A stretch of DNA of 64,000 nucleotides. Source: Candidatus Parcubacteria bacterium. GTDB taxonomy: Bacteria > Patescibacteriota > Minisyncoccia > UBA6257 > HR35. The notes below the pieces were generated by a model. That model saw only the letters and a list, made by a program, of their open reading frames with translations. It searched no databases and was not told the DNA's origin. The translations under genes and the position numbers were made by a program. The stretch lies in the NCBI GenBank assembly GCA_026004535.1, contig BPJI01000001.1, forward strand, positions 324,523 to 388,522, given 5' to 3'. The first letter of the stretch is position 1, and each line of letters starts with the position of its first letter. Positions 6,821 through 59,426 of this stretch are shown in pieces.

Positions 6821-6831
6821 CTAAATTAAAG

Positions 6832-9325: not shown

Positions 9326-9655
9326 TTATTTTAATCTTTTTGCTATTTCTAAATGTGTTTCTAATTCAGCTCCCGAAGCATAAGCAATTCTTAAAAATTG
9401 AATAAAATCTTTTCTTGTTCTTCGCGATCTTCCTTCAGCTATATTGGCCGGGATAGAAACAGCTGCTCTTTTAATTTGACTTACCAATCCATATGTTTCT
9501 TCTTTGGGGAAATATTTGGTTAATTCATAAATTTCCATAACTAATTCAATGGCTTTTTGCCAGACAAGCAGATCTTTATAAGATAGAATTTTTTTATTAC
9601 CAGAGCTTTTTTCATATAATAATTTTACAATATAATTAACCTGACAGCTGACCAC
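9326..9655 (-). CDS. four-helix-bundle protein ('23S rRNA intervening-sequence protein' family), copy 1
   Basis: ILSYKDLLVWQKAIELVMEIYELTKYFPKEETYGLVSQIKRAAVSIPANIAEGRSRRTRKDFIQFLRIAYASGAELETHLEIAKRL. Paralogue of 28995..29378. The N-terminus differs by a 2-nt indel, so there is a possible start or frameshift issue. Confidence 0.6.
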   Translation of the reverse strand: MVSCQVNYIVKLLYEKSSGNKKILSYKDLLVWQKAIELVMEIYELTKYFPKEETYGLVSQIKRAAVSIPANIAEGRSRRTRKDFIQFLRIAYASGAELETHLEIAKRLK

Positions 9656-9674
9656 CTGAAAGCTGACAGCTGAG

Positions 9675-9776
9675 ATGAAAAATCCTGAAGTGGCAAAACT
9701 TTTAAGGATGATGGCAATTTATTTGGAGATGAAAGGAGTTTAGTTTAAACCTCAAGCTTATGAAAAGGCTGCTTAA
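9675..9776 (+). pseudogene. truncated 5' fragment of a DNA polymerase X gene (duplicate of the 29465 start)
   Basis: MKNPEVAKLLRMMAIYLEMKGV*FKPQAYEKAA* is nearly identical to the PolX N-terminus at 29465 and is interrupted by stops. Ends at the palindromic repeat. Confidence 0.6.
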
Positions 9777-9825: not shown

Positions 9826-9854
9826 TTGACAAAATAAAATAGTTAGGATATAAT
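9826..9854 (+). promoter_or_regulatory. sigma70-like promoter (TTGACA-17-TATAAT), identical to those at 6753/6792
   Basis: TTGACAaaataaaatagttaggaTATAAT. Confidence 0.55.
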
Positions 9855-9865
9855 CTAAATTAAAG

Positions 9866-13671: not shown

Positions 13672-14307
13672 ATGTTTTATTTACAAAAGGTTTCCCAATT
13701 TTTGCAATATGACATTTATTTTTTTATTTCTCTTTTCTTTTTAGTTATCACCACAATTTTAAAATTTAAGACGTACGACGTCTTAAAATTGATTAGGATA
13801 TTGATGGTAGTAACGATTTTAGTCTTTATTTTATGGTCAGGCTTTTTAAGTTATAAACAATATTTGGTTTGGAAAGATCACCCTTTATCTAAATATCTTT
13901 TGCCCCCTTATCAAGAAATAAATTATTATCTAAATTATGCCTATTTTCATTTTTGGCGAGATTTTTTTTATCGTTTAATTGGTGTTTTGATTATTTTTTT
14001 ACTGATGAAATTTATAAGTTTTGTTTTTAAAAGAGATGTTTTTTATGAAGAAGAAAAAATTTTTGTTCCTTATCTTTCTTTATTTTTCTTTTTTCCTTAC
14101 AATCTAATGTTTTTCTTTTTAGGCCTTTTTATGTTAAACTTAATAATAGTAATTTCAGCTTTCAGGGGTCAGGGATCAGGTGTCAAGTTTCAGGTGTCAG
14201 AGACGAGGTTTTCTTTTAAAGATTATTGGATTTGGCTGGCTTGGTTGATATTAATTCTAGCACCACTAATTTTTAATAATTATAAGTTTTTACAATATAA
14301 ACCTTAA
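13672..14307 (+). CDS. hypothetical polytopic membrane protein (in the pilus gene cluster)
   Basis: 211 aa with several hydrophobic helices. Carries an in-frame palindromic repeat at 13767-13785. The C-terminus reads through a GGGTCAGG-type periodic repeat. Confidence 0.45.
   Translation: MFYLQKVSQFLQYDIYFFISLFFLVITTILKFKTYDVLKLIRILMVVTILVFILWSGFLSYKQYLVWKDHPLSKYLLPPYQEINYYLNYAYFHFWRDFFYRLIGVLIIFLLMKFISFVFKRDVFYEEEKIFVPYLSLFFFFPYNLMFFFLGLFMLNLIIVISAFRGQGSGVKFQVSETRFSFKDYWIWLAWLILILAPLIFNNYKFLQYKP
13767..13785. repeat. palindromic hairpin repeat TAAGACGTACGACGTCTTA inside a CDS
   Basis: Exact copy, translated in-frame (…FKTYDVLKL…). Confidence 0.7.
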
Positions 14308-16004: not shown

Positions 16005-16013
16005 GAGATTAAA

Positions 16014-17261
16014 ATGACTGTTTATCATTATAAAGCTTATGATTATAAAGGTAAGTTACATACTGGTAATTTATTTGTTCCATCCGAAGAAGAAGCAATT
16101 GCTTTTTTGCTGAGAAATAATTTGACACCAATTGAAGTTAAATTAGTGCCACAAAGTCTGTTTAGGCAGTTTTTATTAAAATTATTTTTTCGTATAACTT
16201 TTTCTCAAAAATTATATTTACTCAGAAGCTTATATTTAATTTTAAAATCAGGGCTTACCTTAGATAAGGGTTTAGAGGTTTTAATCAGAGAAGCAAAGGG
16301 TGGAGTCAAAGATTTTCTTTTTTATTTAGATTACAATTTGCAAAGAGGTGAGCCAGTTTATCGAACTTTTGCTGCTTTCCCTCAATTTTTTTCTCAAGTT
16401 GAAGTTGAGACGATTAGGGCTGGTGAGATTTCTGGTAATTTAGTTGGTAACTTAGAGAAATTGGCCGAAAATTTAGAAAGGCAAAGAGAGATTAAAAATG
16501 AAATAATTTCTAATATTATCTATCCAGCCATTGTTTTGGGTTTAGCTTTTGGTGTTATTATTCTTTTGATCACCTTTGTTATGCCACGAATTAGTGTTTT
16601 ACTTACTCAATTAACATCAAAACCTCCTTTGCTTACCCGCATTTTAATTGGCGCCAGTACCTTTGTTAATAATAATCTTTCTTTAGTTACTACAATATTG
16701 ATTTTAATTATTTTGACTTTTATTTTTGTGGTTTCGCTCAAAAAAACTCGAAAAATATTATTTAAATTTTTAATAAGACTTCCGGTTCTATCTAATCTTT
16801 ATTATGCCTTAGCTTTGAGTCAATCATTTTTTATTTTAAGATCTTTATTGAGTTCTGGTTTAAATCTAACTCAATCTTTAAAATTGGCTGCTGATGCTAG
16901 TTTTCATCCATATATTCGCGAAAGTTTTTATGATGTTGAAAAAGAATTAAGGGCAGGGAAAAAATTAGGTGATGCCCTTTTGTTACAGGAAAAAATTCCT
17001 GTTTTTGTCAGTAGTATTTTAAGTGTTGCTTCAGAAGCTGGATTTTTGGAAGAAACATTAAGAATAATGGAAAATTATTATCTAGAAGAATTTCGAGCAA
17101 CAGTTAGAAACTTTTTGAATTTACTTCAGCCAGCACTTTTAATTTTTGTCGGCGGTATTGTTGGTTTTGTGGCGATTGCTGTTTTGGTTCCTATTTATCA
17201 ACAAATTTCTCAACAGCTTCAGTTTCAAGAAGGTCGCGGTCAAATACCCGGAGAATTATAA
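16014..17261 (+). CDS. pilC: type IV pilus inner-membrane platform protein (GspF/PilC family)
   Basis: 415 aa with two repeated GspF-like domains and three TM segments; canonical position after pilB. Confidence 0.85.
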   Translation: MTVYHYKAYDYKGKLHTGNLFVPSEEEAIAFLLRNNLTPIEVKLVPQSLFRQFLLKLFFRITFSQKLYLLRSLYLILKSGLTLDKGLEVLIREAKGGVKDFLFYLDYNLQRGEPVYRTFAAFPQFFSQVEVETIRAGEISGNLVGNLEKLAENLERQREIKNEIISNIIYPAIVLGLAFGVIILLITFVMPRISVLLTQLTSKPPLLTRILIGASTFVNNNLSLVTTILILIILTFIFVVSLKKTRKILFKFLIRLPVLSNLYYALALSQSFFILRSLLSSGLNLTQSLKLAADASFHPYIRESFYDVEKELRAGKKLGDALLLQEKIPVFVSSILSVASEAGFLEETLRIMENYYLEEFRATVRNFLNLLQPALLIFVGGIVGFVAIAVLVPIYQQISQQLQFQEGRGQIPGEL

Positions 17262-28289: not shown

Positions 28290-28440
28290 CAGGGTTAATT
28301 TGAAATACCGGATATTAGTTAACCAGATATTAACCAGATAATATTTATCTACCCTGATGTTAACCGGATAAGTTACCCGGATTATAACCAGATAATATCT
28401 GGTAGACATCAGGGTAATTCATCTGGTAGTAATCTGGGTA
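28290..28440. repeat. CCGGAT/CCAGAT-type periodic palindromic element
   Basis: …ataccggatattagttaaccagatattaaccagataat…; right half …atctggtagacatcagggtaattcatctggtagtaatctgggtag…. Confidence 0.6.
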
Positions 28441-28969: not shown

Positions 28970-28994
28970 CTTTCAGGTAGTCAGCTTTCAGCTT

Positions 28995-29378
28995 TCAGGT
29001 TTCAGCTTTCAATTTTGAGATCATTTTATTTAGCATTTTCATTACATCTTTTAAAAGTAAATCCACCTTAGAGTAATCGATATTTTTTGTTTCTTTCAAT
29101 CTTTTGGCTATTTCTAAATGTGTTTCTAATTCAGCAGACGAGGCATAAGCAATTTTTAAAAATTGGACAAAGTCTCTTCTTGTTCTTCGAGATCGTCCTT
29201 CAGCTATATTGGCTGGAATAGAAACAGCCGCTCTCTTGATTTGGCTTACCAATCCATATATTTCTTCTTTAGGAAAATGTTTAGTTAGTTCATAAATTGC
29301 AATGACTAATTCAATAGCTTTTTGCCATACAAGTAAATCACGATAAGATAGAATTTGCCTGTCAGGAGTTTTTCTCAT
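28995..29378 (-). CDS. four-helix-bundle protein ('23S rRNA IVS protein' family), copy 2
   Basis: MRKTPDRQILSYRDLLVWQKAIELVIAIYELTKHFPKEEIYGLVSQIKRAAVSIPANIAEGRSRRTRRDF…. Confidence 0.7.
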   Translation of the reverse strand: MRKTPDRQILSYRDLLVWQKAIELVIAIYELTKHFPKEEIYGLVSQIKRAAVSIPANIAEGRSRRTRRDFVQFLKIAYASSAELETHLEIAKRLKETKNIDYSKVDLLLKDVMKMLNKMISKLKAET

Positions 29379-29464
29379 ATAATAATTTTATCAAAAATAT
29401 TTCACTGAAAGCTGACAGCTAATTAATTATATGAAAGCTGACAGCTAATTCCCTGAAAGCTAGG

Positions 29465-31183
29465 ATGAAAAATCCTGAAATTGCAAAATTATTAAGGATG
29501 ATGGGAATTTATTTGCAGATGAAGGGAGTTCAGTTTAAGCCGCAGGCTTATGAGAAAGCTGCTTATTCGATTGAGGCTTTGGATGAGGATATTGAAGAAT
29601 TTATTAAAAAAAATGGCAAAGAAGGATTGAAAAATTTACCCGGAGTAGGGGAGTCAATTGCAGAAAAAATAATTGAATATTTAAAAACAGGAAAAATTAA
29701 AGAACTGGAAGAATTAAAAAAAGAAGTACCAGTTGATGTTGAGACCTTAACTTCAATTGAAGGAGTTGGGCCAAAGATTGTTTATAAACTTTATAAAGCT
29801 TTGGGAATAAAAACAATTGAAGATTTAGAAAAAGCTTGTCGGGAGCATAAAATAAGAAGATTGCCTGGATTTGGAGAAAAAAGTGAAGAAAAAATTTTAA
29901 AAGGAATTGAATTTTTCAAACAAGGTGGAGGAAGAGTAATTTTGGGTTTTATTATTCCCGTGGTTGAAGAATTAGTAAGTTATTTAAAAGAAAGTGGGTT
30001 GGCCAAAGAAGTTGTGCCTGCTGGTTCTTATCGTCGAAAAAAAGAAACAATTGGTGATATTGATATTTTGGCTGTTTCTGATAAACCTGAAAAATTAATG
30101 GATTATTTTGTCAAGTTTCCTGAAGTAAGTAATATTTATGCTCAAGGACCAACTAAAACTATGGTTAGACTAAAAATTGGGCTTGATGCTGATTTAAGAG
30201 TTGTACCCGAAGAAAGTTTTGGTGCTGCGCTGGCTTATTTTACTGGCTCAAAGGATCATAATATTAAAATGAGGGAATTGGCAATTAAGAAAGGATGGAA
30301 ATTGAATGAATATGGACTTTTTGATAAACAGGAAAAAATGATAGCTGGCAGAACTGAAGAAGAAATTTATGAAAAACTTGGTTTAGATTGGATACCACCT
30401 GAGATGAGAGAAAATCGAGGTGAGATTGAATTAGCAATGGAGGGGAAATTACCAAAATTGATTGAATATGGTTCAATTAAGGGTGATTTGCAAGTTCAGA
30501 CAAATTGGACTGATGGCCAAAATTCAATTGAGGAAATGGTTGAGGAAGCAATTAAATTAGGTTTGGAATATATTTGCATTACTGATCATACTAAATCTTT
30601 GGCAATGACTGGTGGTTTGGATGAGGAAAAATTATTAAAGCAGATGGCTGAGATTGATAAATTAAATCAAAAATATAAAGGCAAGATAAAAATTCTAAAA
30701 GGAGCGGAAGTTAATATTTTAAAAGATGGTAGTTTGGATATCAAAGATGAAGTTTTGGCAAAATTAGATTTTGTTGGCGCTGCTATTCATAGTCATTTTA
30801 ATTTACCTCGAAATGTTCAAACTGAAAGAATTAAAAAAGCAATGGCTAACCCTAATGTTGATTGTATTTTTCATCCAACTGGCAGAGTGATTAACAAAAG
30901 ACCTGCTTATGAAGTTGATATTGATGAAATTATTGATTATGCTAAAAAGACTAAGACTATTTTAGAAATTGATGCTTATCCTGATAGACTTGATTTGAAA
31001 GATGAACATATAAGAAAGTGTGTTGAAAAAGGAGTAAAGATGGTAATTGATAGTGATGCTCATTCAGTTTTACATTTAGGTTTTTTAGATTTAGGAGTGA
31101 GCCAAGCACGTCGTGGATGGGCAACGCCGTCCGATATTATTAATACTTTAGCATATGATAAATTCAATTCATTAATTCATTAG
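29465..31183 (+). CDS. DNA polymerase X family protein (Pol-beta-like core plus C-terminal PHP phosphoesterase domain)
   Basis: HhH motifs (GVGESIAEKI, GVGPKIVYKL), palm …GSYRRKKETIGDIDIL…, PHP …ITDHTKSLAMTGG…HSHF…DSDAHS…. Confidence 0.85.
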   Translation: MKNPEIAKLLRMMGIYLQMKGVQFKPQAYEKAAYSIEALDEDIEEFIKKNGKEGLKNLPGVGESIAEKIIEYLKTGKIKELEELKKEVPVDVETLTSIEGVGPKIVYKLYKALGIKTIEDLEKACREHKIRRLPGFGEKSEEKILKGIEFFKQGGGRVILGFIIPVVEELVSYLKESGLAKEVVPAGSYRRKKETIGDIDILAVSDKPEKLMDYFVKFPEVSNIYAQGPTKTMVRLKIGLDADLRVVPEESFGAALAYFTGSKDHNIKMRELAIKKGWKLNEYGLFDKQEKMIAGRTEEEIYEKLGLDWIPPEMRENRGEIELAMEGKLPKLIEYGSIKGDLQVQTNWTDGQNSIEEMVEEAIKLGLEYICITDHTKSLAMTGGLDEEKLLKQMAEIDKLNQKYKGKIKILKGAEVNILKDGSLDIKDEVLAKLDFVGAAIHSHFNLPRNVQTERIKKAMANPNVDCIFHPTGRVINKRPAYEVDIDEIIDYAKKTKTILEIDAYPDRLDLKDEHIRKCVEKGVKMVIDSDAHSVLHLGFLDLGVSQARRGWATPSDIINTLAYDKFNSLIH

Positions 31184-36252: not shown

Positions 36253-36984
36253 ATGAGATTATTTATTGTTCCAACGCCGATAGGTAATCTAAAAGATATC
36301 ACTTTGAGAGGAATTGAGGTTTTAAAACAAGTTGATTATATTTTTTGTGAAGATACAAGAAGAACAAAAATTTTGCTTGATCATTATGAAATTAAAGACA
36401 AAAAATTAATTTCTTATTTTGCTCCTTTTGAAGCAAAGAAAATTCCACAACTTTTAGAAATTTTAAAAAGAAATGAGGCTGCTTTAGTTGTTGATTCTGG
36501 AATGCCAGTTATTTCTGATCCTGGTTATAAATTGATTAAAGCTTGTTTGGAAAATAGTATTGAAATTGAAGTTTTACCAGGGCCAACTGCTTTTTTGACT
36601 GCTTTGATTGGTTCAGGTTTGCCTTTAGATAAATTTTTATTTTTAGGCTTTTTACCTAAAAAAGGATTGGAAAATTATTTTCGAAAAATAAAAGACTTAG
36701 AAGTAACAATTGCTTTTTATGAATCACCAAAAAGAATATCGAAAACTTTAGAAGTTATTAGAAAGGTTTTTGGTAATTGTCAAGTTGTTATTGCTCGAGA
36801 GGTTTCTAAAATTTATGAAGAATATTTAAGAGGAGATATTGAAGAAATAATTGAAAAATTAAAAGATAAAAAATTAAAAGGAGAGATAACCGTTATAATA
36901 CGCAGAACTACGCATAACGAACGCAGAACTAATAAAAATAGCTTCATAGCTTCCTATCAGCTTCAAAGCTTCTCAGCTTCATAG
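36253..36984 (+). CDS. rsmI: 16S rRNA (cytidine1402-2'-O)-methyltransferase
   Basis: MRLFIVPTPIGNLKDITLRGIEVLKQVDYIFCEDTRRTKILLDHYEI… The C-terminal about 30 codons read through CGCAGAACT and GAAGCT periodic repeats. Confidence 0.8.
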   Translation: MRLFIVPTPIGNLKDITLRGIEVLKQVDYIFCEDTRRTKILLDHYEIKDKKLISYFAPFEAKKIPQLLEILKRNEAALVVDSGMPVISDPGYKLIKACLENSIEIEVLPGPTAFLTALIGSGLPLDKFLFLGFLPKKGLENYFRKIKDLEVTIAFYESPKRISKTLEVIRKVFGNCQVVIAREVSKIYEEYLRGDIEEIIEKLKDKKLKGEITVIIRRTTHNERRTNKNSFIASYQLQSFSAS

Positions 36985-37047
36985 CCTCTTTTTATGTATC
37001 TGCTTAATTGTATTTCGCCTTTAAATTTTAGCACAATTTTCCACATC

Positions 37048-37075
37048 TTGACATCATATTTTTTCTATTTATAAT
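37048..37075 (+). promoter_or_regulatory. sigma70-like promoter (TTGACA-16-TATAAT) for the pilin-adhesin gene
   Basis: TTGACAtcatattttttctatTTATAAT. Identical copy at 57789-57817. Confidence 0.5.
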
Positions 37076-37081
37076 TAAATT

Positions 37082-37402
37082 ATGAATAAAAAAATGAATA
37101 AATCCTTCACTTTAGTTGAACTCTTAGTTGTCTTAGCTCTAATAGCTATCTTAGCTACTGTCTTAATTGTTGTCATTAAGCCAGCAGATATCTTTAAAAG
37201 AGGTAGAGATAGTCAAAGAACTTCAGACCTTAAAAATCTTGAAAAAATATTTGACCTTATTCTTTTTGAAACTCAAGGCACCTTTTCTGAACTTCAATAT
37301 GCTTCCTCAAATGTTGTCTATATCTCTCTTCCTGATACTTCATCAACTTGTGGTCAATGGATAAGTCAATTACCACAGCTTCCTTCAGGCTGGTCATATT
37401 GA
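37082..37402 (+). CDS. type IV pilin-like module (prepilin N-terminus), terminated by an in-frame TGA that is followed by 296 further sense codons
   Basis: MNKKMNKSFTLVELLVVLALIAILATVLIVV…; TGA at 37400-37402. Confidence 0.7.
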   Translation: MNKKMNKSFTLVELLVVLALIAILATVLIVVIKPADIFKRGRDSQRTSDLKNLEKIFDLILFETQGTFSELQYASSNVVYISLPDTSSTCGQWISQLPQLPSGWSY

Positions 37403-38290
37403 TGCTCAGCAACTCCAACAAATATTGATGGTACTGGCTGGATTCCTATTCCTTTTAATCAATTTTCAAGCATTAATCTTTCTAGACTTTTCATTGATCC
37501 AATCAATAGACCTCCATATTACTATGCATTTGTTGCTGGAGGAAGTTATGCTCTCTATGCTCAATTAGAAAATCCTCAGTCTCAAGCCTCAAAAACAGAC
37601 AATGATAATTATCCTCATCTATTTTCAGTAGGAACAAATAAAAGACTCATTGATCAAGCTCAAGGACTTGTAGGGTATTGGTCTTTTGATGAAGGAAGTG
37701 GAAATATTGCTAATGATTATTCAGGAAACAATAATAATGGAACACTCTATAATGGTCCTCAATGGGTTGATGGTAAAGTAGGTAAAGCTTTAAGTTTTGA
37801 TGGAGTGGATGATTATGTGAATGCATGGACTGGCCCCGGCTCGCAAATTACCGATAGAGTTACTGTGAGCGCGTGGGCTCGTAATGTGGGAGCTCCTTCA
37901 GCGTTTAATACGATTATTGCTAATTATGCTTCGAATGCGGGATGGGCAATACGCACCGCAGAATCGGGGATTAGTTACCTGCATTTCTTAGGACGATCCG
38001 GCGCAGGCGAAGTGCGAGTTATCATTGCTTCCGAGGCGGAAACATTTAATGGTGCATGGCACCATGTCGCATTTACGGTGTCTGGAGGCGTTGCGAGAAC
38101 ATATCTTGACGGTGGTTTTGTTGCTTCCGCGTCTGGTGTTGTGAATTTGCAACCAGCGACGACTACTTTGATTGGGAAGGGTCATATAGGAGGACTTGGC
38201 TTCTGGAACGGTCTTATCGACGAAGTTCGTATCTACAATCGCGCTTTATCAGATCAAGAAATAAAGGTTCTTTATGAAGCAACTAAATAA
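37403..38290 (+). other. in-frame, stop-free continuation of the pilin ORF after the TGA: LamG/ConA-like lectin (jelly-roll) domain
   Basis: Same frame as 37082. No start codon for about 400 nt. …NGAWHHVAFTVSGGVARTYLDGGFVASAS…GLIDEVRIYNRALSDQEI… is a LamG-type signature. Confidence 0.5.
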
Positions 38291-38488
38291 CCACGGATAT
38301 ACACGGATAATAAATAACCACGGATTTACACGGATAACATAAAGGATAGATACGGATACTAATTAATGTTCGTATAAGTTTGTGTATAGTTCGCATAAAG
38401 GGTACGTATAAAACACTATAGCGTCTGAAACGTCCTTTCTGATTTTAGTGACTTTAATGATATATGATTAATAAAAGAATATGTTTTG

Positions 38489-38906: not shown

Positions 38907-39527
38907 TTATAAATAAATTTTTCTGATTTCTTTGATTAAAAAATTTTTTATTGTACTTAAATCAACTCTTTTTGAAGGCATAAAATCTATAGGTTCTTCT
39001 TCTATTTCTGAAAAATCAAGGAGTTCTTTAAAAATAAAGTTAATATCAACATCAGAAATTTTTTTATTAAATAAATTAACAATTTGTTTTAATTTTACTT
39101 TTTTTAAACCATAATAAAGATCAACATAATCTTTAAACTCAATTCTTTCAGTAACTACCAAAAGTTTCATACAGAGAATATCTTCTAAACTAGCAATGTT
39201 TAAAAATTTTGTTTTAATTAATGGTTTAATTAAAGGGTACTTGTAAAATAAAAAATTAACATTAACTTCATTATCGAAAACCAAAAATAAAGAACTTTTA
39301 TCAGATAATGATTTAATAACTTTATGGTTTTTAGCTAAAGATAATATCTTTTCAAATAAATTTCTTTCATCAAATTTTTTTTCAGAAAAAAAATCAAAAT
39401 CATAGCTTTTTCGATGGCCTAAAATTAAAGAAAGTCCGGTACCGCCAGCTAGATAAAAATCTTTCTTTAAAAAAGAAAATAAAGGCAATAATTTCTTCCT
39501 TTTTTTATCTAAAACTTTTTCAAACAT
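38907..39527 (-). CDS. Pol-beta-superfamily nucleotidyltransferase (AbiEii/MNT-like)
   Basis: …FYLAGGTGLSLILGHRKSYDFDFF… fits hG[GS]-x(9-13)-DhD. Confidence 0.55.
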   Translation of the reverse strand: MFEKVLDKKRKKLLPLFSFLKKDFYLAGGTGLSLILGHRKSYDFDFFSEKKFDERNLFEKILSLAKNHKVIKSLSDKSSLFLVFDNEVNVNFLFYKYPLIKPLIKTKFLNIASLEDILCMKLLVVTERIEFKDYVDLYYGLKKVKLKQIVNLFNKKISDVDINFIFKELLDFSEIEEEPIDFMPSKRVDLSTIKNFLIKEIRKIYL

Positions 39528-47984: not shown

Positions 47985-48375
47985 GATTAACGCAGACAGC
48001 AACAGAAAAAATATTTTCTGCCCGGATATTAACCGGATAAGTTACCCGGATTCTTACCGGATATACTACCCGGATTCTTACCGGATAATATTTCATTATT
48101 TTACCCGGATATTAACCGGATGATAGCTACCCGGATTTAGACCGGATATACTACCCAGCTATAAACCGGATGATTTATAAAATATTTTTTATCCGGTATT
48201 CATATCCGGGTAAAATAATCCGGGTGGCTATCCGGGTAATCTATTCCGGTAAGTTATCCGGGTAAAACAATCCGGTATTTATCCGGGTAATCCATCCGGT
48301 TGACTATCCGGTTAATATTTTAATATCCGGTAATCATCCGGGTAAATAAATATCCGGTTGATTATCCGGGTTAAA
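47985..48375. repeat. CCGGAT-type periodic palindromic element, about 390 bp
   Basis: Left …cccggatattaaccggataagttacccggattcttaccggatatac…. Right half carries the reverse complements …atccgggtaaaataatccgggtggctatccgggtaatc…. Confidence 0.7.
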
Positions 48376-48905: not shown

Positions 48906-50660
48906 AAATTCCCTTAAAAAATAAACAAAAGCAATTTTATACGCCACGGATTCACGCCGATTTTTATAATCCACGGATTTACGCGGATTTAGAACGGATT
49001 TACGTGGATTATTATCATTAGGATTTAGGCGGATGTTGTTTCCGGGTAGTATTCTTTCTTTTTCATAAAAGCTATGAATTTTTTTAGCTAAATCAATTAA
49101 ATAATCAGTGAGAAGATGAGGTCTTTTTTCTTTGTAAATTAAATAAATTAAATCTTGTAATTGATGAACCTTTCTTAAAATTATTTTAGCTGAGTCAATG
49201 TCTTTAATTGATAAGAAAACTTTTTGCGCATCAATTATTCGTGTTAATTCGCTTTTTATTCGTGTTAATTCGCGTCCTTTCTCCAAAATACTATTTAACC
49301 TTGCACAAGCATATTGAATATACCAATAAGGATTTTCCTCTGATTCTTTTTTGGCTAAATCTAAATCAAATTCAATCATAGCCTCAGGAGATTTTTGTAA
49401 AAAGAAAAATCTAACAACTCCTGAGTCAATTTCGTCAATTAAGTCTTGTAAAGTGATAAAAACTCCTCTTCTTTTTGACATTCTTAAATATTCTTGTCCT
49501 TTTTTAAGATGAACAAATTGATAAACTATCGGTAAAAATTGGTAATCTTTAATGCCAAAAATTTTTAAAGCGGCTCTCAATCTGCGAGTGTGATCAAGAT
49601 GGTCACTAGCAACAATTAAAATTTCTATCTTATTTTTCTTAAGAAAAAATTTATGGTAATAGTGTAAAATATCAGAGAAAAAATAAGTTGGTTCACCATT
49701 TTGTTTAATTAAAACTTCATCTTTATCTTCACCCAATTTTGTTAAAAGCAAAAACAAAGCTCCATCTCTATTTTCAATTAATTTTTTTCTTTCAAAAATT
49801 CTTAGAACTCTTTTATCTAAATTTTTTTTATAGAGATCCGTTTCAAAGAAGTACCAATCAAAATTAGTGCCAAAATTTTTTAAGGCTTGTTTAATGAGAT
49901 TCTTTAAAATATAATCAGCTACTTTTTTGCCAATTTTTTCTAATATTACAGACTCATGCTGATTTAGAATTGTTTTTATTTCTTCACTCAACTTTTCAGC
50001 AATCTCTTTTAGATATTCACCTTGATAAAAATTGCTTTCCCAATCAAGATAACCTAAATGAGCCAAGACTGTTTTGGCTAAAATCTCAATTTGATTTCCG
50101 CGATCATTAACGTAATATTCCCTAGTAACTCTAAATCCAGCTAATTTTAAAATGTTTGCCAAAGTATCTCCTAAAACAGCACCTCGAGCATTTCCTAAAG
50201 TTAAAGGCCCAGTAGGATTAGCGGAGACATAATCAATATTTAATTTTTGTTTTCGACCATAATTTTGTTGGAAAAATTTTTCTTTATTTTTATAAATTGC
50301 TCTAAATGTTTTTAAAAGCTGATAATCAGAAAGCCAAAAATTTAAGTAATTATTGACAATCTCGATTTTTTTGAAAACCAAGGATTTTCGCGGATTTAAA
50401 ACGGATTTATGCGGGTTATTATCAGCGTTGATCCTTTTTGAAATCTGTGTAAATCTGTGTTTAATTTTATCAATAATTATTTTTTCTTTTTCCGGAGCAA
50501 ATTGTTTTAAAAGAAAAATTAGATTGGTTGAATAATCACCTAATTTTTCATCATCAATTAAAAATACTTTTAATTTTTGTAAAATTTTCTCTGCTTTTTC
50601 TTTATCGATTTCTTTTCTAATTAAATTTTTCAATTTTTGCTCTAAAAGATAAAGATTCAT
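48855..50660 (-). CDS. argS: arginyl-tRNA synthetase
   Basis: …YVSANPTGPLTLGNARGAVLGD…. In-frame CACGGAT-repeat insertions near both ends (48930-49040 and 50380-50420). Confidence 0.85.
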   Translation of the reverse strand: MNLYLLEQKLKNLIRKEIDKEKAEKILQKLKVFLIDDEKLGDYSTNLIFLLKQFAPEKEKIIIDKIKHRFTQISKRINADNNPHKSVLNPRKSLVFKKIEIVNNYLNFWLSDYQLLKTFRAIYKNKEKFFQQNYGRKQKLNIDYVSANPTGPLTLGNARGAVLGDTLANILKLAGFRVTREYYVNDRGNQIEILAKTVLAHLGYLDWESNFYQGEYLKEIAEKLSEEIKTILNQHESVILEKIGKKVADYILKNLIKQALKNFGTNFDWYFFETDLYKKNLDKRVLRIFERKKLIENRDGALFLLLTKLGEDKDEVLIKQNGEPTYFFSDILHYYHKFFLKKNKIEILIVASDHLDHTRRLRAALKIFGIKDYQFLPIVYQFVHLKKGQEYLRMSKRRGVFITLQDLIDEIDSGVVRFFFLQKSPEAMIEFDLDLAKKESEENPYWYIQYACARLNSILEKGRELTRIKSELTRIIDAQKVFLSIKDIDSAKIILRKVHQLQDLIYLIYKEKRPHLLTDYLIDLAKKIHSFYEKERILPGNNIRLNPNDNNPRKSVLNPRKSVDYKNRRESVAYKIAFVYFLREFLGFALSLINIKPIKKL

Positions 50661-53600
50661 TGAAACACTCTTTTAAAAGTGTCATTTAATATTTTTTGAT
50701 AATCTTTCTTACCTTCAGCAACTAAATCCATTGCCTCTTCTAATTTTATAGTAAATTCTTCAGCAACCAAATCTTTGTGTTTTTTAATCAAATAATTATA
50801 AATCTTTTCTCCTAAAGAAACGGGAATTAAATATCCCGAACGATTGAGAACATATTTTCTATCAATTAAAGTTTGAATAATTGTTGAATAAGTTGATGGT
50901 CTACCTAAGCCTCTTTTTTTCATTTCATCAATAAGCTCACCCTGGGTATAATGATATTCTTTTGGTACTTTTTTAATTTTTAAATTCTCAACTTTAAATT
51001 TATCTTCAATTAAATTAAAAATTTTTATATTTTTAAAGAATTGAAGATGATTGCCTTCAGTAATTTCAACAAAAGCCTCTTGTGTTTGCTTATATAAAAC
51101 AAATTCATGGTTACTTGTTTTAAGGATTATTTCAATTTCTGTTTTTTTGCCTTTGCTTGGTTTCATCTGAGAAGCGATAAATCTATTAAAGATCAATCCG
51201 TAAAGCTGTAAGTGTTTTTTAGTCAAATTTTTTTGTTCTAAAATCATACTTTCAATAAGATCTTGGACATCTAACGGTTTTGTCGGTCTTATTCCTTCAT
51301 GAGTACCAATTTCTCCCCAAGCTCGTTTATAAAACAAATCTTTTAAATTCTTTCTTTCTAAATATTCATAGGCAACATTACGACCGAATTCAGAAACGAA
51401 AACAGAATCAGTTCGATGATAAGTAATTAATCCTTGTTCAAAAAGGTCCTGAGCTAATCTCATTGTTATTGGAGCTTCAAATCTAAAAAAACTATTAGCA
51501 TCTTTTAAAAGATTACTTGTATCATAAGGAGGTAGGGGATTAATTGTTTCTTCTTGGGTTCTGTTAAATTTTATTTCAATTTCTAATTCTTGGTTTTTAA
51601 AGGCTGTTTTTATTTCTTTAATAATGTCTTCATTTTCTAAGTAAAAATAAAGAGGAGTAAGTTTTTGGGAATCATTGGGTTGATTTATGCTAACATTAAC
51701 TAAATAATGCTTATTTTTAATTCTTTTTTCTTTTTCTAAAATCCAACCTAAGACTGGAGTCTGAACTCTGCCGGCAGAAAGATTGAGATTTTTAAAATGT
51801 TGTTGAATTTCTTCACTTAATTTAAAACCAATCCAACGATCAGAAATTCTTCTTAAAAGTTGAGCCTTGACTAAATTAACATCAACATCTCTTGGTTCTT
51901 TTATTTTTTTAATGAATTCAGTTTTGGTAATTTCATGAAGCTCTATTCGTTTGATGTTTTGATTATAGGGATAAAGATAGGCAAATAAATCAAAAGCTAT
52001 TTTTTCGCCTTCGGTATCAGGATCAGTGGCTAAATAAATTTTATCAACCTCAAAAGCAATTTTTTGTAAATTTTTTATTAATTCTTGTTTACTAAGGAAA
52101 TTTTGAGAATTACAAACAGGACATTCATTTTCGTTTAAACTTAAGTGGCGCTTACAATTCTGACAAATTTTTAAGGGTTGAAAAACAGGCACAAATTCCC
52201 CTTTTTCTTTTTTGACACCATAATAACCATCTTGATGAGTTAAATCAGTAAAGTGCCCTAAAGTAGCGCAAATATTTAAATGTAGATTTCCTAAGGAAAC
52301 CTCATAAAAAATAATATTAGCCTTAATTCTCCTAGCTGGCTTGCCAAAAAAGTTAGCGATCGTTTTTGCTTTTGTCGGCGATTCAACTAAAACCAAAGCA
52401 GTTTCAATTGGATCTTTAAGAGTAAACTCTTCGCCAGTTAAGACCCTTTCAACAATTTTGCGATCTTTATCAATTTCTTCTAAAATTTTTGTTAAATTAA
52501 TTTCACTAGCATTTTTAAAATTTGCTTCATAGCCTAAGATTTTCAATTTATCTTTTAAATGATTTAAAACTTTTTCATTTTCAGCTAAAATTAAAGCTAA
52601 TCCTTTGGTAAGACCCAGAGGAAAAAGTCGCGAAGTTCTACCTGATGCTTGAATATAGCCACGAGGATCAGAAACAACTAAATAATAATTTAAATTATTA
52701 CCCGGATCATCACTAGATATATTACCCGGATGATTACCGGATAGATGGTTGTTTTCCTTGGAATTTATATTAGTTTTTACTCCATTATTGTTCGCATTGG
52801 TTCGCGTATAGTTCGCATCAGTCTGCGTCATTAGAGTTATTCTTGGATGTTTTTTAATTTTTTCAATAATTTCTTCATCTTTTAAAAATTCTTCAAAAGT
52901 TCTTTTTATTGGTTCGATTTTTTCCTTTAAATTTTTATCAGCCAGAATTGCTTCTTCTTTGAGAAAAGATATTTTTTTAAGAAAATTCAAATTTCTTTCA
53001 ATTAACGATTTTTCATCGACAGTTTCTCTTAATGTTAGGCCTAAAAGAAAAAGATGTAAAGGAGAATAAGATACTTTTAATGGAATCTTAAATTTTGGCA
53101 CACCCAAAAACAAGGCATATCTTACTTTTTGGGGTAAATCAATTCCTCGAGTTAAGGGATTTCTAATATTACTAAAGCCGACAACAACTTGAATTTCATT
53201 TTCTAAAAAAGCTTTTTGATTTTTGGTATTAAATTTTTCATACGAAACAGCATTTATGCTATTTTCTTTTAAAAAATCAATATAATTATTTAAATCTTCT
53301 TTACGAAAATCATCATTTAAAAAAACAAAACCACCAGGACCTAATTTTTTTAGCCAATAGATTGATCTTTTGATTAACGCGATTTTTTGCGAACTATCGG
53401 AAGGAGCGGAAACGAACGCAGAACTATCGGAATGAGCGGAAGAATTGTTTCCGTTTGTTCCGTTTATAATTTCATACACTTCTTCAATGTTTCTTAAATA
53501 AGTTGTTGCTGAGCCAATTTCAAATCCTAAAAGTTCTCGAAAAAGGGCAATTTTTTTTGTTTTTGGAGTTAAAGTGGCTGAAGCAGCAATAATAAGACCC

Positions 53601-54355
53601 TTCTCATCTTTGTTAATATCCATAACTTCAATTGCAGCATAATCTTCTCTATTTTTGGCTTTTCTTTTTTTGTCAATAATTTGGATTGCTCTTTGGATTT
53701 CTTCATCTTTGAATTTAATTAATTTCAAAACTTTATCAATATTTTTTGGTTGTCTGATTAAAGAATCGGCGTCATCAACAAAAACCAAATCAAAATTTTT
53801 AGGAATAATGTCAAAATTTTTATGAAGAAAGTTGGCCGTAGTAAGCAAAATATCAAAATCTTCATTTTTTAATAATTCTTTATCTTCTTTTTCTTTAATG
53901 ATTAAAATTTTTTTATCAGATTTTATATTTTTTAATTTTTTCTCAATCTCACGCAATAAAATTTTTGAAGGGACTAAATAATAAACTTTGCCTGGAAGAA
54001 AATGAGAAATAATGTTACCAAAAGTTGTTTTACCAATTCCGGTAGGAGCAATTATGGAAAAAGATTCTCTTTTTAAGACTCTTTTTGCCCAATAAAGCTG
54101 AAGTCGAAGTGGTTGATGCCCAGTATTTTCTTTAAAAAAATTTATGAATTCTTTTAATTTCTGTAAAACTATGTAATCTTCATTAAAATTCTCCAAGTCC
54201 TCTTTAAGATCGAGATTCTCAGTTATCTTAAATAGGGTTTTTTTAAATCTTTCATAATCTTTATTACACAAGCCATAATTATAGATTTCCTCAAAATTAG
54301 CATCATTTCTATCTATCGGACAAATTTCTAAATAGCGAACGTTTAATTTTTCCAT
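50657..54355 (-). CDS. rgy: reverse gyrase (N-terminal helicase-like domain fused to a type IA topoisomerase)
   Basis: …LQLYWAKRVLKRESFSIIAPTGIGKTTFG…, …DLVFVDDAD…, …ALVLVESPTKAKTIANFF… (TOPRIM), Zn finger CQNCKRH…CPVC. 1232 aa. In-frame repeat insertions at about 52690-52830 and 53390-53460. Confidence 0.8.
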   Translation of the reverse strand: MEKLNVRYLEICPIDRNDANFEEIYNYGLCNKDYERFKKTLFKITENLDLKEDLENFNEDYIVLQKLKEFINFFKENTGHQPLRLQLYWAKRVLKRESFSIIAPTGIGKTTFGNIISHFLPGKVYYLVPSKILLREIEKKLKNIKSDKKILIIKEKEDKELLKNEDFDILLTTANFLHKNFDIIPKNFDLVFVDDADSLIRQPKNIDKVLKLIKFKDEEIQRAIQIIDKKRKAKNREDYAAIEVMDINKDEKGLIIAASATLTPKTKKIALFRELLGFEIGSATTYLRNIEEVYEIINGTNGNNSSAHSDSSAFVSAPSDSSQKIALIKRSIYWLKKLGPGGFVFLNDDFRKEDLNNYIDFLKENSINAVSYEKFNTKNQKAFLENEIQVVVGFSNIRNPLTRGIDLPQKVRYALFLGVPKFKIPLKVSYSPLHLFLLGLTLRETVDEKSLIERNLNFLKKISFLKEEAILADKNLKEKIEPIKRTFEEFLKDEEIIEKIKKHPRITLMTQTDANYTRTNANNNGVKTNINSKENNHLSGNHPGNISSDDPGNNLNYYLVVSDPRGYIQASGRTSRLFPLGLTKGLALILAENEKVLNHLKDKLKILGYEANFKNASEINLTKILEEIDKDRKIVERVLTGEEFTLKDPIETALVLVESPTKAKTIANFFGKPARRIKANIIFYEVSLGNLHLNICATLGHFTDLTHQDGYYGVKKEKGEFVPVFQPLKICQNCKRHLSLNENECPVCNSQNFLSKQELIKNLQKIAFEVDKIYLATDPDTEGEKIAFDLFAYLYPYNQNIKRIELHEITKTEFIKKIKEPRDVDVNLVKAQLLRRISDRWIGFKLSEEIQQHFKNLNLSAGRVQTPVLGWILEKEKRIKNKHYLVNVSINQPNDSQKLTPLYFYLENEDIIKEIKTAFKNQELEIEIKFNRTQEETINPLPPYDTSNLLKDANSFFRFEAPITMRLAQDLFEQGLITYHRTDSVFVSEFGRNVAYEYLERKNLKDLFYKRAWGEIGTHEGIRPTKPLDVQDLIESMILEQKNLTKKHLQLYGLIFNRFIASQMKPSKGKKTEIEIILKTSNHEFVLYKQTQEAFVEITEGNHLQFFKNIKIFNLIEDKFKVENLKIKKVPKEYHYTQGELIDEMKKRGLGRPSTYSTIIQTLIDRKYVLNRSGYLIPVSLGEKIYNYLIKKHKDLVAEEFTIKLEEAMDLVAEGKKDYQKILNDTFKRVFQ

Positions 54356-55232: not shown

Positions 55233-56579
55233 TTAATTGATTCTTTTCAAAATAATTCCTCCGCCTAAAACGATGTCATCTTTATAAAAAACTATTGATT
55301 GACCTGGGGCAACAAATTTTTGAGGTTCGAGAAATTCAATGAACGCAGACCCTCGCAGACTGTGCGCAGACTTTTGCAGACTATACTCAGATTCACGCAG
55401 AATAAGTTTTGCTTTAACTAAGGGTTGTCTATGGCGAAAACGAACATCAATAATTATAGAATTACCCGGATGATTACCTGATAGATTACCCGGATGATTA
55501 CCTGATAGATTACCCGGATGATTACCGGATGAATAGTTATTGTTTATATAGTCTGCGTAAGTCTGCGTGTAGTCTGCGTGGGTCTTCGTTTTATCTGTAT
55601 TAGTCTGAGGAAACAAAATTTCTTTTTCTAAGATATTAATTTCAGTAATTTCAATTTTTTGGCTATAAAGTAAAGGATGACCTTCTTTAGCAACAACAAT
55701 TAAATTTTCTTCAGGAATTTTTTGAGCTACATAATATGGGCCATCACCAACTTTAATATTAAGTCCATGTCTTTGGCCTTCAGTGAAATAAAAATAACCA
55801 GGATGAGTGCCTAGGATCCTTCCTTCAGTATCAATAATTTTACCTTCTTTTGGTTTTAAATATTGACTTAAAAATTCTCTTAATTTTACTTGGCCAACAA
55901 AGCAAATTCCCATACTTTCCTTCTTCTCAGCAACTGGTAAATTATATTTTTTAGCAATTTCTCTAACTTCAGTCTTTAGCAAATCGCCAACAGGGAAAAT
56001 TATTTTTGAGAACTTTTCTTTTTCAATTGACCAAAGAAAATAAGTTTGATCTTTATCCTGATCTTTTGCTTTTAAAAGATGAATTTCAGATGTATTACCC
56101 TGATGTCCACCGGATATATTACCCAGATAATTACCTGATGAATTATTTCTTTTATTAGATTCTATATTAAGATTGTCTTTCTTATTGTTCGCATCAGTTC
56201 GCGTTAAGTTCGCATCGATTTGCGTTCGAGCATAATGTCCTGAAGCAACCATCTCATAACCTAAATTTAAAGCTTTATCAAAAAATACGCCAAATTTTAT
56301 AAACTGATTGCAGTAGACATCTGGATTAGGAGTTAAGCCCTTTTCATAAGTTCGAATCATATAGTTTATAACTTTTTCTTCAAATTCATCGGTTAAATCA
56401 AAAACATAAAAAGGAATATTTAAAATTTCAGCTACTCGACGAGCATCTTCAGCATCTTGAGGATTACAAAAATCAAAACAATGTAAATGAACACCAACGA
56501 GATTATAACCTTTTTCTTTTAAAAGCAAAGCTGAAACTGAAGAATCAACTCCTCCAGAAAGAAGAACAGCTATTTTCAT
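55233..56579 (-). CDS. mnmA: tRNA-specific 2-thiouridylase MnmA
   Basis: MKIAVLLSGGVDSSVSALLL… PP-loop. Two long in-frame insertions of CCGGAT plus GTCTGCGT repeat DNA (55340-55580, 56090-56230). Confidence 0.85.
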   Translation of the reverse strand: MKIAVLLSGGVDSSVSALLLKEKGYNLVGVHLHCFDFCNPQDAEDARRVAEILNIPFYVFDLTDEFEEKVINYMIRTYEKGLTPNPDVYCNQFIKFGVFFDKALNLGYEMVASGHYARTQIDANLTRTDANNKKDNLNIESNKRNNSSGNYLGNISGGHQGNTSEIHLLKAKDQDKDQTYFLWSIEKEKFSKIIFPVGDLLKTEVREIAKKYNLPVAEKKESMGICFVGQVKLREFLSQYLKPKEGKIIDTEGRILGTHPGYFYFTEGQRHGLNIKVGDGPYYVAQKIPEENLIVVAKEGHPLLYSQKIEITEINILEKEILFPQTNTDKTKTHADYTQTYADYINNNYSSGNHPGNLSGNHPGNLSGNHPGNSIIIDVRFRHRQPLVKAKLILRESEYSLQKSAHSLRGSAFIEFLEPQKFVAPGQSIVFYKDDIVLGGGIILKRIN

Positions 56580-57345: not shown

Positions 57346-57465
57346 CTCATTCAGCTTTACAGCTTCCTAGCTTCACAGCTTATCAGCTTCAAAAAATTAT
57401 AATATAATTATTATATCATAGAAGCTTTAAAGCTATGAAGCTTGGAAGCTGATAAGCTATTTTTT

Positions 57466-57536: not shown

Positions 57537-57788
57537 ATTGAGTAATTAACATTTTTACCATTTTAGTTTGTTCCACATCTTCCCTGTCCGTTTCCTTCTG
57601 TTTAGTATATGTCGGAAGGAGCAGAAGCGGACGCAGAACCATCGGAAGGAGCAGAAGAATTATTTCCGCTTGTTCCGTATCCTTTTCTGTTTATTCCGCA
57701 TTTTCCATGTCCGTTTCCGTTCATTTCGTTTTTTCCGTGTCCGCTTCTGTTCATTTCGCCTTTAAATTTTAGCACAATTTTCCACATC

Positions 57789-57817
57789 TTGACATCATAT
57801 TTTTTTCTATTTATAAT
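57789..57817 (+). promoter_or_regulatory. sigma70-like promoter (TTGACA-17-TATAAT), duplicate of 37048
   Basis: Identical upstream 60 bp to the 37082 gene. Confidence 0.5.
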
Positions 57818-57823
57818 TAAATT

Positions 57824-58144
57824 ATGAATAAAAAAATGAATAAATCCTTCACTTTAGTTGAACTCTTAGTTGTCTTAGCTCTAATAGCTATCTTAGCTAC
57901 TGTCTTAATTGTTGTCATTAAGCCAGCAGATATCTTTAAAAGAGGTAGAGATAGTCAAAGAACTTCAGACCTTAAAAATCTTGAAAAAATATTTGACCTT
58001 ATTCTTTTTGAAACTCAAGGCACCTTTTCTGAACTTCAATATGCTTCTTCAAATGTTGTCTATATCTCTCTTCCTGATACTTCATCAACTTGTGGTCAAT
58101 GGATAAGTCAATTACCACAGCTTCCTTCAGGCTGGTCATATTGA
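57824..58144 (+). CDS. type IV pilin-like module (identical to 37082..37402) ending at the same in-frame TGA
   Basis: 100% identical N-terminal module; TGA at 58142-58144. Confidence 0.7.
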   Translation: MNKKMNKSFTLVELLVVLALIAILATVLIVVIKPADIFKRGRDSQRTSDLKNLEKIFDLILFETQGTFSELQYASSNVVYISLPDTSSTCGQWISQLPQLPSGWSY

Positions 58145-58972
58145 TGCTCAGCAACTCCAACAAATATTGATGGTACTGGCTGGATTCCTATTCCTTTTAA
58201 TCAATTTTCAAGCATTAATCTTTCTAGACTTTTCATTGATCCAATCAATAGACCTCCATATTACTATGCATTTGTTGCTGGAGGAAGTTATGAGTTAACA
58301 GCAGCTTTAGAAGTTAAGACGAATAAAGGAGATGGGTCAATTTCTGCTAATGATGGGGGAGATGATGATTATATTTATGAAAAAGGAACTAATTTAAATT
58401 TAACTCCTTTAGTTGTTCAAGGTAGACTTCTCACAAATTCTATTTACGCTGTTAGTGGTAGTTGTGATAACTCTACTTATTGTGGTTATATGGATAATCA
58501 TAGTGAAGCTGATGCTATTAGAAATTTTCCAGCCAACATCTGTAAAAAATATGTTGATAAATTATATTGGGGTTCAGTGTGTGATAATACAAACCCTGAA
58601 AGTGGAGTTAGGAATTATTTTTATTCACGTTTTAGATTTTTGTTTGTTCCTGATGTAAGTGGAACATGGTATTTTGCTGTTGATAGTAATGATGGAGCGG
58701 AATTAATATTAAATAAAGATGATTCTGATAACGACCACACAAAACACACTTTAATTGCTTCATGGTATGGTGTGCATGGTTGGTGTAATTGTCAAAATGC
58801 AAGTGGCACGATTGATATGATTGCAGGTCAAGGATATTGGTTTGATTATATTCAAGAAGAATGGAGCGGAGTTGAAGCGGCCGTTTTATGGGTAAAAAGG
58901 CCAGGAGATGTTTGGAAAGTTTTAAGTGTTACTAATTTTCCTAATCAAATATTTGCAAGGCCTGCATATTAG
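58145..58972 (+). other. in-frame stop-free continuation after the TGA: PA14/GLEYA-like carbohydrate-binding domain
   Basis: Same frame, 276 codons with no stop. …VSGTWYFAVDSNDGAELILNKDD… resembles PA14. Confidence 0.45.
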
Positions 58973-59426
58973 TATAAAAATACAAAATAGCTCATCAGCT
59001 TTATAGCTTCCAAGCTTTTTTAGCTTACCATTTTTTTAGTTTTATAGAAAACATAAAGGTACATATAAAATGCTATAGCATCTAAAACATCCCTACACAT
59101 AAAAAGACAAAAGTCTACTGCTACGTAGCAATAGAGAATTGAACCAGTTTTTATTTCTACTATTTAAATACGATCGTATTAAGTTAGGAGAATTAATAAA
59201 TATAATGACGTGCGATATCCAGATGTTGATTCATCATCGAATATTTGGGACATCGCAGGTCTTAAATTATTTTCCGTATCATCTTCCTTTATTCCGTTTT
59301 TTTCGTATTTATTTCAGTTTGTTCCATATCTTCCATTTTCATTTCTCTCTGTTTGGCTGAGAAATTGACATTTTTTCCAGATTCTAGATTTTTGTTTTTT
59401 AGAAAGCTTTCAGGATAATTAAATTA

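Follow-up and report, generated by a model that had tools for sequence, protein, structure and literature searches.

What does an in-frame TGA do in the middle of a gene that otherwise reads as a complete fusion of a pilin to a lectin? The question arises twice in the window, i.e., the whole 64-kb stretch of DNA analyzed here, which is part of the single 556,583-bp contig of the 0.56-Mb Candidatus Parcubacteria genome KatS3mg096. Two genes, hereafter copy 1 and copy 2, share a promoter and the 5' part of a type IV pilin gene, carry TGA at the same codon, and remain open in frame into different tails, which are of the Laminin_G_3 (LamG) type in copy 1 and of the PA14 type in copy 2. The first-pass annotation of this DNA had taken the TGA to be retained rather than decaying. 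Our analysis, centered on copy 2, favors another answer, to which we give a probability of about two in three: the TGA would be a nonsense allele that gene conversion has carried from copy to copy within a family of modular type IV pilins. The coordinates of the features are listed in Table 1.

The codon replaced by TGA

To establish what this codon encodes in related genes, the critical codon was left free, and the degenerate DNA pattern GWSY-NNN-CSATPTNIDGTGWIP was searched against the GTDB representative genomes and the JGI metagenomes. In the 20 homologous loci outside KatS3mg096, the aligned codon was AGA in 13, CAT in six, and CGT in one, and TGA was found in none of the 20. The protein homologues read SGWSY[R/H]CSATP, i.e., with Arg or His at this place, and five paralogues from KatS3mg096 itself (locus tags 085, 126, 293, 301, and 171) have Arg in the same peptide context.

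An in-frame TGA followed by an open frame in a Patescibacteria genome, with a Cys directly after the site, could also be read as an amino acid, either selenocysteine or the product of a reassigned code (table 4 or 25, as in some Patescibacteria). The residues found in the homologues speak against this, as they are neither Cys, Gly, nor Trp, and so does the use of TGA in the rest of the window. Of 48 long open reading frames (ORFs), 15 ended in TGA, and 13 of these closed again within about 60 codons; the long continuations past TGA were those of the two pilin copies and one case in which the next gene lies in the same frame. The TGA terminators included ATGA overlaps, and decoding TGA as sense gained little ORF length. 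Since TGA terminates 13 other ORFs of the window, the genetic code is taken as the standard one, and an alternative code was rejected on this stop-codon usage. Selenocysteine was rejected on the Arg/His of the homologues, the RNA fold, and the Rfam search: the segment from the TGA onward (58142-58221) folded with -12.8 kcal/mol, which is no SECIS-like (selenocysteine insertion sequence) hairpin when compared with shuffled sequences (z = -0.81), and no SECIS or other recoding element of Rfam was matched even at E <= 10. In addition, the window encodes nine tRNAs, of which none carries the anticodon UCA or is a selenocysteine tRNA. The stop overlaps an ATG (TGATG); re-initiation there was also discarded, because that frame holds 48 stops. 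We therefore give hardly any credence to TGA as a sense codon here. Compared with the homologous codons, the TGA of copy 2 is an Arg codon that a single base change turned into a nonsense codon, neither selenocysteine nor a reassigned codon. Purposeful retention of the TGA is not supported, given the Arg/His of the 20 outside loci, the Arg of the five paralogues, the 13 genes that end in TGA, and the lack of SECIS or recoding structure.

The reading frame and the pilin head of copy 2

Translation from 57824 gave the leader MNKKMNKS, then FTLVELLVVLALIAILA..., and then the in-frame TGA; this pre-stop stretch is annotated in GenBank as a 102-amino-acid (aa) hypothetical protein, KatS3mg096_389. 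Residues 4-28 matched the Pfam family PF07963 (N_methyl; E = 7.3e-7, 28.9 bits against a cutoff of 21.2), and the mature N-terminus, F-T-L-V-E, has the Glu at +5. At the prepilin cleavage site, between ...NKS and FTLVE, position -1 is Ser and not the Gly by which type IV pilins are recognized. This is a family trait, since most of the close homologues have Ser and a few have Gly, and Ser or Ala is tolerated at this position. As the first-pass annotation had stated, both divergent tails are open in the pilin frame, for 275 codons past the TGA in copy 2 and for 295 codons in copy 1. The other two frames of the post-TGA stretch of copy 2 hold 12 and 48 stops, and a fully open frame was obtained in 0 of 20,000 shuffles, indicating that this is real coding sequence and not a chance opening.

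The layout is that of a modular pilin, with a second domain placed C-terminally and in frame, the PA14 module in copy 2 and Laminin_G_3 (E = 8e-25) in copy 1; intact homologues of about 400 aa (382-462 aa) share the order of head, linker, and module. The uninterrupted ORF of a modular pilin is broken in copy 2 by the TGA between codons 106 and 108, and, as in a pseudogene, this stop at codon 107 is premature when compared with the intact homologues. The window also encodes type IV pilus machinery, namely, a T2SSE/PilB-like ATPase (14307-16004, E = 7e-122) and a T2SSF/PilC-like platform protein (16014-17261, E = 1e-44); no prepilin peptidase was found among the window ORFs scanned. In our proposal, this locus encodes a modular type IV pilin: a leaderless promoter is followed by a class III signal peptide, the pilin module, a linker, and a lectin module of the PA14 type. 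Intact relatives would display the lectin on a type IV pilus, probably at its tip, with the PilB/PilC machinery encoded at 14307-17261. From copy 2 as it stands, only a 106-aa fragment would be expected, and it is probably non-functional, because it is without Cys108 and the conserved strands TNIDGTGWIPIPF, IDPINRPPYYY, and GGSY.

The shared 5' cassette and its promoter

The first-pass annotation had described 57762-58290 and 37020-37545 as identical, with the same TTGACA-17-TATAAT promoter. When the complete cassettes of both copies were aligned pairwise, the repeat was confirmed and even extended to 538/539 nucleotides (nt); strict identity did not hold, as there were two differences in total. 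The sole substitution was C at 37306 against T at 58048, a synonymous Ser change (TCC versus TCT), and the sole indel fell in a T run of the promoter spacer, with T6 in copy 1 (about 37059-37064) and T7 in copy 2. Because of this 1-nt difference, TTGACA-N17-TATAAT is valid for copy 2 only, and the spacer of copy 1 is 16 nt long. Slipped-strand phase variation may act on this T run, or the length difference may be no more than a homopolymer error of the HiFi reads. The place of divergence was predicted well, about 50 shared codons past the TGA, since identity stops at 58292, 49 codons after it. The -10 box of copy 2 ends 6 nt upstream of the ATG at 57824, homologues have TATAAT 6-9 nt upstream of theirs, and a Shine-Dalgarno sequence is absent upstream of the ATG of copy 2; together, these features suggest that the pilin-lectin mRNA is leaderless. 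No further fragments of the cassette or the tails were found elsewhere in the 64-kb window. A 30-nt TTCCG-rich unit, repeated 3.3 times, lies directly upstream of the copy 2 cassette.

A pilin family with probable recombination of heads

A survey of the genome for further cassette copies, which the first-pass annotation had recommended, revealed at least nine beyond the two of the window, i.e., a family of at least 11 copies in KatS3mg096 that carry different tails; the nine are known as protein records only, and DNA was read for the two window copies. The proposal that a constant 5' cassette is joined to variable lectin tails was thus upheld, with Laminin_G_3 and PA14-like tails in the window, the further copies, and similar arrangements in related populations. 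By exact-sequence look-up, the truncated 102/106-aa product ending in ...SGWSY was found at six locus tags: 036, 272, 368 (copy 1), 389 (copy 2), 447, and 898. Among the copies with Arg, tag 301 is intact, with 394 aa comprising pilin and LamG, and is the only one of the at least 11 copies that is full-length by annotation. In tags 085, 126, and 293, the tail is cut short, and the products have 214, 168, and 223 aa, respectively; tag 171, whose head is more diverged, is truncated as well, at 304 aa.

The distribution of two alleles in the head carries most of the argument for recombination. Residue 43 is Ser together with the stop at codon 107 in tags 036, 368, 389, and 447, and Asn together with the stop in 272 and 898; Arg107 is accompanied by Ser43 in 085, 293, and 301, and by Asn43 in 126. 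All four combinations are present, and therefore recombination took place within the head, barring recurrent mutation. We propose that gene conversion keeps the promoter-plus-pilin heads near-identical, i.e., in concerted evolution, with lectin tails that differ. A single-base change would have turned the Arg107 codon of one head (AGA or CGA) into TGA in KatS3mg096; this nonsense allele would have arisen once, and head-to-head recombination would have copied it into at least six members, both window copies included. That gene conversion was the spreading mechanism is what we infer from these sequences.

Two further observations were made on the LamG tails of this family. Tags 085 (P0124), 293 (P0001), and 171 (P0186) end at or just past conserved landmarks of the LamG N-terminal block, GN(G/N)NNGT in the first two and FDGVDDYV in the third, and it looks as if recombination junctions or breakpoints were clustered at these landmarks. 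In copy 1, the variable core of the LamG tail (37800-38200) has about 45-54% G+C, compared with about 32% elsewhere in the gene and the genome; the conserved regions at both ends of the domain do not depart from this background. The composition suggests that a core segment of foreign or recombined origin was placed between constant arms (FDGVDDYV ... GLIDEVRIYNRALS).

Open tails and the recency of the stop

If the stop were leaky by design, UGA would be read through at low frequency, e.g., by a near-cognate tRNA, yielding much of the short product and little of the full-length pilin-lectin. Such programmed leaky termination would fit the open and undegraded tails, the same stop position in six copies, and the perfect or near-perfect promoters, and a low-abundance tip adhesin may suffice, to judge from the modular pilin literature (PMC8179133). 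However, the open tails are accounted for by the recency of the stop. Stop-creating substitutions represent 4.6-5.5% of all those possible in the tails. The heads are about 99.8% identical, so the TGA reached each locus recently; at this divergence of 0.2%, which bounds the time since the last TGA-delivering conversion at each locus, each tail should have acquired about 1.7 substitutions and would have escaped a new stop with a probability of about 0.9. Hence, open tails are expected with so recent an arrival of the stop, and they are uninformative on retention. In a leave-one-out comparison, 3 of 32 conserved columns deviated in the tail of copy 2 and 2 of 94 in copy 1 past the TGA; the spread among intact relatives covers both values. 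The copy 2 tail has no extra stops or frameshifts, and the decay signal was limited to an Asp-to-Asn change at a site conserved in 26 of 26 relatives; this decay test is low in power, because the event is recent.

Several other points go against a leaky stop. No relative has a stop at this codon, the in-frame stops of relatives lying elsewhere, and no RNA structure was found downstream. The base 3' of the TGA is T, and UGA-U is an efficient termination context in E. coli, not a leaky one. Moreover, the 106-aa product would be an incomplete pilin module. Altogether, we regard programmed leakiness as distinctly unlikely.

Near-identical heads and lesions in relatives

Near-identical heads on dissimilar tails were found in three independent sets, L005/L010/L012, L006/L018, and the window pair, in which heads were 98-100% identical at the DNA level and tails 51-69%; between populations, heads were 65-90% identical. 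Judging by these sequences, head homogenization with diverse tails would be a trait of the lineage. The tails of the relatives are mostly Laminin_G_3, and 1,857 proteins, many of which combine a pilin with LamG, were retrieved at E <= 1e-10 when the copy 1 tail served as the query. Literature searches yielded no earlier report of gene conversion among the pilins of Patescibacteria.

Lesions were frequent in these relatives. In L004 and L007, CAA was changed to TAA at NIS*LFIDP, and the frame of L007 then remained open for 294 codons to the natural stop; in L008, TGG was changed to TGA at NCSN*LSQLP; L015 and L016 have a common frameshift in the N-terminal helix, and L018 has one in the tail. 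Inactivation is therefore recurrent and affects no single site, which argues against a programmed recoding signal. The pattern fits a rapidly turning-over, contingency-like gene family.

One relative departs from the usual tails. L012 (Ga0078972_1051419) shares its head with L005 and L010, is a variant of 462 aa, and has a tail that ends in ...GFRCAR and that, by eye, resembles the FGE-sulfatase/C-type-lectin fold. Folds of this kind are the usual target type of diversity-generating retroelements.

The first-pass annotation had compared the pilin copies to the gene pair at 6832 and 9866, and this proved to be a true second example of head swapping, in which 600 nt and 188 aa are identical and both genes are intact. 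The identity between 6792-7400 and 9826-10434, about 600 nt, includes the upstream region and 188 codons and is followed by complete divergence. This family differs from the pilin family in having a Sec-type signal peptide. Gene 6832-9219 encodes DUF2341, seven RCC1 repeats, and a Peptidase_S74 chaperone domain, and no Pfam match at all was obtained for gene 9866-12454.

The PA14-like tail of copy 2

The first-pass annotation had proposed a PA14/GLEYA-like domain of 276 codons. The fold was right and the size was not: the divergent tail has 226 codons, of which about 46 form a linker and about 170-180 the PA14-like module. The Pfam PA14 match was marginal for the copy 2 tail (23.8-24.7 bits against a cutoff of 24); PA14 was matched by all three close homologues, and GLEYA additionally by one. 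AlphaFold2 modeling of the module with a 27-sequence alignment gave a mean predicted local distance difference test score (pLDDT) of 94.3 and a predicted template modeling (TM) score of 0.91; a run on the whole post-TGA part with three sequences (pLDDT 38) was discarded. When the model was compared with the PDB by Foldseek, it matched Flo1, Flo5, Epa1/6/9, Cea1, KpFlo2, and Marinomonas MpPA14 with probability 1.00 and TM scores of 0.55-0.67, and the top 40 PDB fold matches (all E <= 7e-4) were PA14/GLEYA lectins or PA14-containing proteins. Profile searches of PDB sequences with the module gave nothing useful, the fold search alone being informative. The predicted structure thus identifies the copy 2 tail as a genuine PA14/GLEYA-type lectin fold. 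Like the yeast Flo1/Flo5/Epa1 and MpPA14, it has the beta-sandwich fold, and its relatives have an invariant S-D-D, putatively the Ca2+/sugar-binding pair of PA14; unlike them, it shows 10-16% identity to the solved structures, N-D in place of D-D, several extra Cys, and fusion to a pilin instead of a repeat-rich stalk.

An exhaustive search returned 241 relatives of the module at E <= 1e-10, mostly DUF2341 plus a PA14-like module. Ten of them were scanned against Pfam: DUF2341 lay upstream of the matched module in all ten, pilin N-termini were present in two (one bacterial, one archaeal), and a direct fusion of pilin to PA14 was found in none. The sugar-binding Ca2+ of PA14 lectins is coordinated by a pair of adjacent Asp residues, DcisD (PMC8092209). 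The S-D-D motif of the relatives may correspond to this pair, as assigned from motif and fold. The change of its first Asp to Asn in copy 2 is compatible with early relaxed constraint or with altered specificity.

Assembly quality

The genome was obtained in a study of the Katase hot spring by Kato et al. (2022, PMC9671151), for which PacBio Sequel II HiFi reads (read N50 of 10.5 kb, above Q20) were assembled with metaFlye. In an artefact of assembly or consensus, or with a minority allele, the true base would mostly be A or C (Arg), and the T would have been propagated to similar repeats during polishing. A metagenome-assembled genome in which near-identical repeats can confuse read placement gives some room for this, as does the homopolymer-length difference between the copies, a typical HiFi error class. 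Nevertheless, the T is a substitution and not an indel, and each 540-nt repeat is spanned many times over by reads of about 10 kb, which tie it to its unique flanking sequence. The Arg paralogues were assembled correctly in the same genome, and the other window genes checked were undisrupted: GyrB, ClpB, reverse gyrase, DnaB, MnmA, PilB, and PilC, as well as the Ser-, Ala-, Arg-, and Asp/Lys-type tRNA synthetases, were all intact. Owing to the HiFi read length and the intact housekeeping genes, a collapsed or chimeric repeat at copy 2 is unlikely, and we consider an artefactual or minority T very unlikely.

Points against the nonsense allele and a switching alternative

Some observations weigh against a deleterious allele spread by gene conversion. 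The same stop in six of at least 11 copies is a high frequency for such an allele in a 0.56-Mb genome, and each stopped copy keeps a perfect or near-perfect promoter. The tails are fully open, and their conserved columns are kept as in intact homologues, which would also be expected of a translated gene. Furthermore, four of the six stop-bearing copies are known from annotated protein products, the Arg paralogues of the same genome were likewise seen as protein, and the TGA is known from the assembly consensus.

These copies may alternatively form a reversible adhesin-switching system of an episymbiotic Parcubacterium, with one intact copy (KatS3mg096_301), at least ten silenced ones, and the shared stop as a maintained OFF state; we hold this to be possible but rather unlikely. 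The promoter-plus-head block of about 540 nt would act as a homology arm, with a different lectin tail in each silenced copy. Short gene-conversion tracts would move TGA or Arg in or out, the promoter T run would serve as a second switch, and lectins would be turned ON and OFF without gene loss.

Features and neighborhood

Table 1. Features of the pilin-lectin copies, numbered from the first letter of the window.
Feature	Position	Strand	Details
Copy 1	37013..38290	+	Same cassette at 37013-37550 (538 nt), TGA 37400-37402, then Laminin_G_3 lectin tail
Shared 5' cassette of copy 2	57754..58292	+	539 nt; promoter, class III signal peptide, and pilin module to ...AGGSY
Sigma-70-type promoter	57789..57817	+	TTGACA (57789-57794)-N17-TATAAT (57812-57817); 12/12 consensus matches
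T7 run in promoter spacer	57800..57806	+	Relatives L006 and L018, otherwise near-identical, have T15 versus T7 at the equivalent site
106 codons upstream of the stop	57824..58141	+	Leader MNKKMNKS, mature FTLVE..., alpha-1 helix, first part of globular pilin module including Cys90
In-frame TGA	58142..58144	+	At the Arg/His position of all relatives, SGWSY[R/H]CSATPTNIDGTGWIPIPF; from translation and homologue comparison
Remainder of pilin module after the stop, inside the shared cassette	58145..58292	+	Cys108, TNIDGTGWIPIPF, IDPINRPPYYY, GGSY; columns invariant across 31 family members
Linker, start of divergence	58293..58429	+	About 46 aa, of the E(L/V)TAALE...GTN..LTP..VQ(G/A)R type; same type in L005, L007, P0002, P0006
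PA14/GLEYA-type lectin module	58430..58969	+	About 180 aa; natural stop TAG 58970-58972
AAT (Asn) in place of the first Asp of S-D-D	58688..58690	+	Asp in 26/26 relatives; S-N-D in copy 2

Both pilin copies are flanked by short repeats and adjoined by tRNA genes. The intergenic short repeats of the window comprise (ATAGCTTC)n and its complement, a 27-nt ACGGATA unit, and CCGGATA-type arrays, with repeats at 36938-36985, 38284-38337, 57421-57460, 57664-57763, and 58980-59030. CCGGATA-type copies lie at 28324-28394, 47993-48063, 52673-52743, and 55437-55507; the last two are inside the long ORFs 50657-54355 and 55233-56579, respectively, and thus are not intergenic. The first of these ORFs (minus strand, 1,232 aa) combines a DEAD/ResIII helicase with Toprim and Topoisom_bac, the architecture of reverse gyrase, which is noteworthy in a Parcubacteria genome of 0.56 Mb that was recovered from a spring at 52 °C. 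Dispersed repeats of 84-86% identity (9218-9517 with 28983-29282, and 9663-9775 with 29453-29565) link the region downstream of gene 6832-9219 with about 29000-29565, beside a PolX-like gene. Beyond copy 1 and a tRNA-Glu gene, a gene for an AbiEii-type nucleotidyltransferase toxin of a type IV toxin-antitoxin system is found on the minus strand (38907-39527).

Discussion

Modular type IV pilins are best compared with PilB and PilC of Streptococcus sanguinis, which carry a vWA module and a concanavalin A-like lectin module, respectively (PMC8179133, Raynaud et al. 2021; PMC9934059, Shahin et al. 2023). More than 1,200 modular pilins with 264 architectures have been listed, many of them from Candidate Phyla Radiation bacteria (PMC8179133). 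The family described here resembles the S. sanguinis proteins in its class III signal peptide and small pilin module, short linker, and C-terminal ligand-binding module, concanavalin A/LamG lectins included. It differs from them in having at least 11 copies in 0.56 Mb, a homogenized head and promoter, interruptions in most members, and Ser at -1.

Multi-copy families with silent cassettes that undergo gene conversion via conserved segments are known from Neisseria pilE/pilS, Mycoplasma genitalium MgPar, and Borrelia vls. The KatS3mg096 family is like pilE/pilS in being multi-copy, with one or few intact members and many that are non-expressible; in this comparison, the evidence of recombination here consists of allele combinations and is indirect. 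The pilS cassettes are without promoter and 5' constant region and vary the C-terminal part of the pilin itself, whereas every KatS3mg096 copy has a consensus promoter and a complete head, a separate lectin module varies, and silencing is by nonsense or truncation. The vlp lipoprotein genes of Mycoplasma hyorhinis have a conserved 5' region, a homopolymer tract in the promoter spacer, and variable 3' parts. The pilin-lectin genes are similar in their conserved promoter and signal-peptide block, variable 3' parts, and spacer homopolymer of differing length (T6/T7, and T15/T7 in relatives); unlike vlp, they encode pilins, the tract is short, and T6/T7 is also a typical HiFi error class.

Patescibacteria live attached to hosts, and type IV pili are central to attachment in the few members that have been cultivated (PMC11623550, PMC10633639). 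In this setting, at least 11 pilin-lectin genes in 0.56 Mb resemble a toolkit to choose or change the surface that is bound. What stands out is the homogenized promoter and head, the diversity of tails (LamG variants, PA14, and an FGE-sulfatase-like one in a relative), and the individual inactivation of most copies. The locus also calls for caution, in that an in-frame TGA in Patescibacteria is by itself no evidence of recoding. If the stopped copies were a reversible reservoir, they would represent a new route of adhesin variation in uncultivated symbionts; if they are fresh pseudogenes, they would be a clear example of gene conversion spreading a deleterious allele through a gene family.

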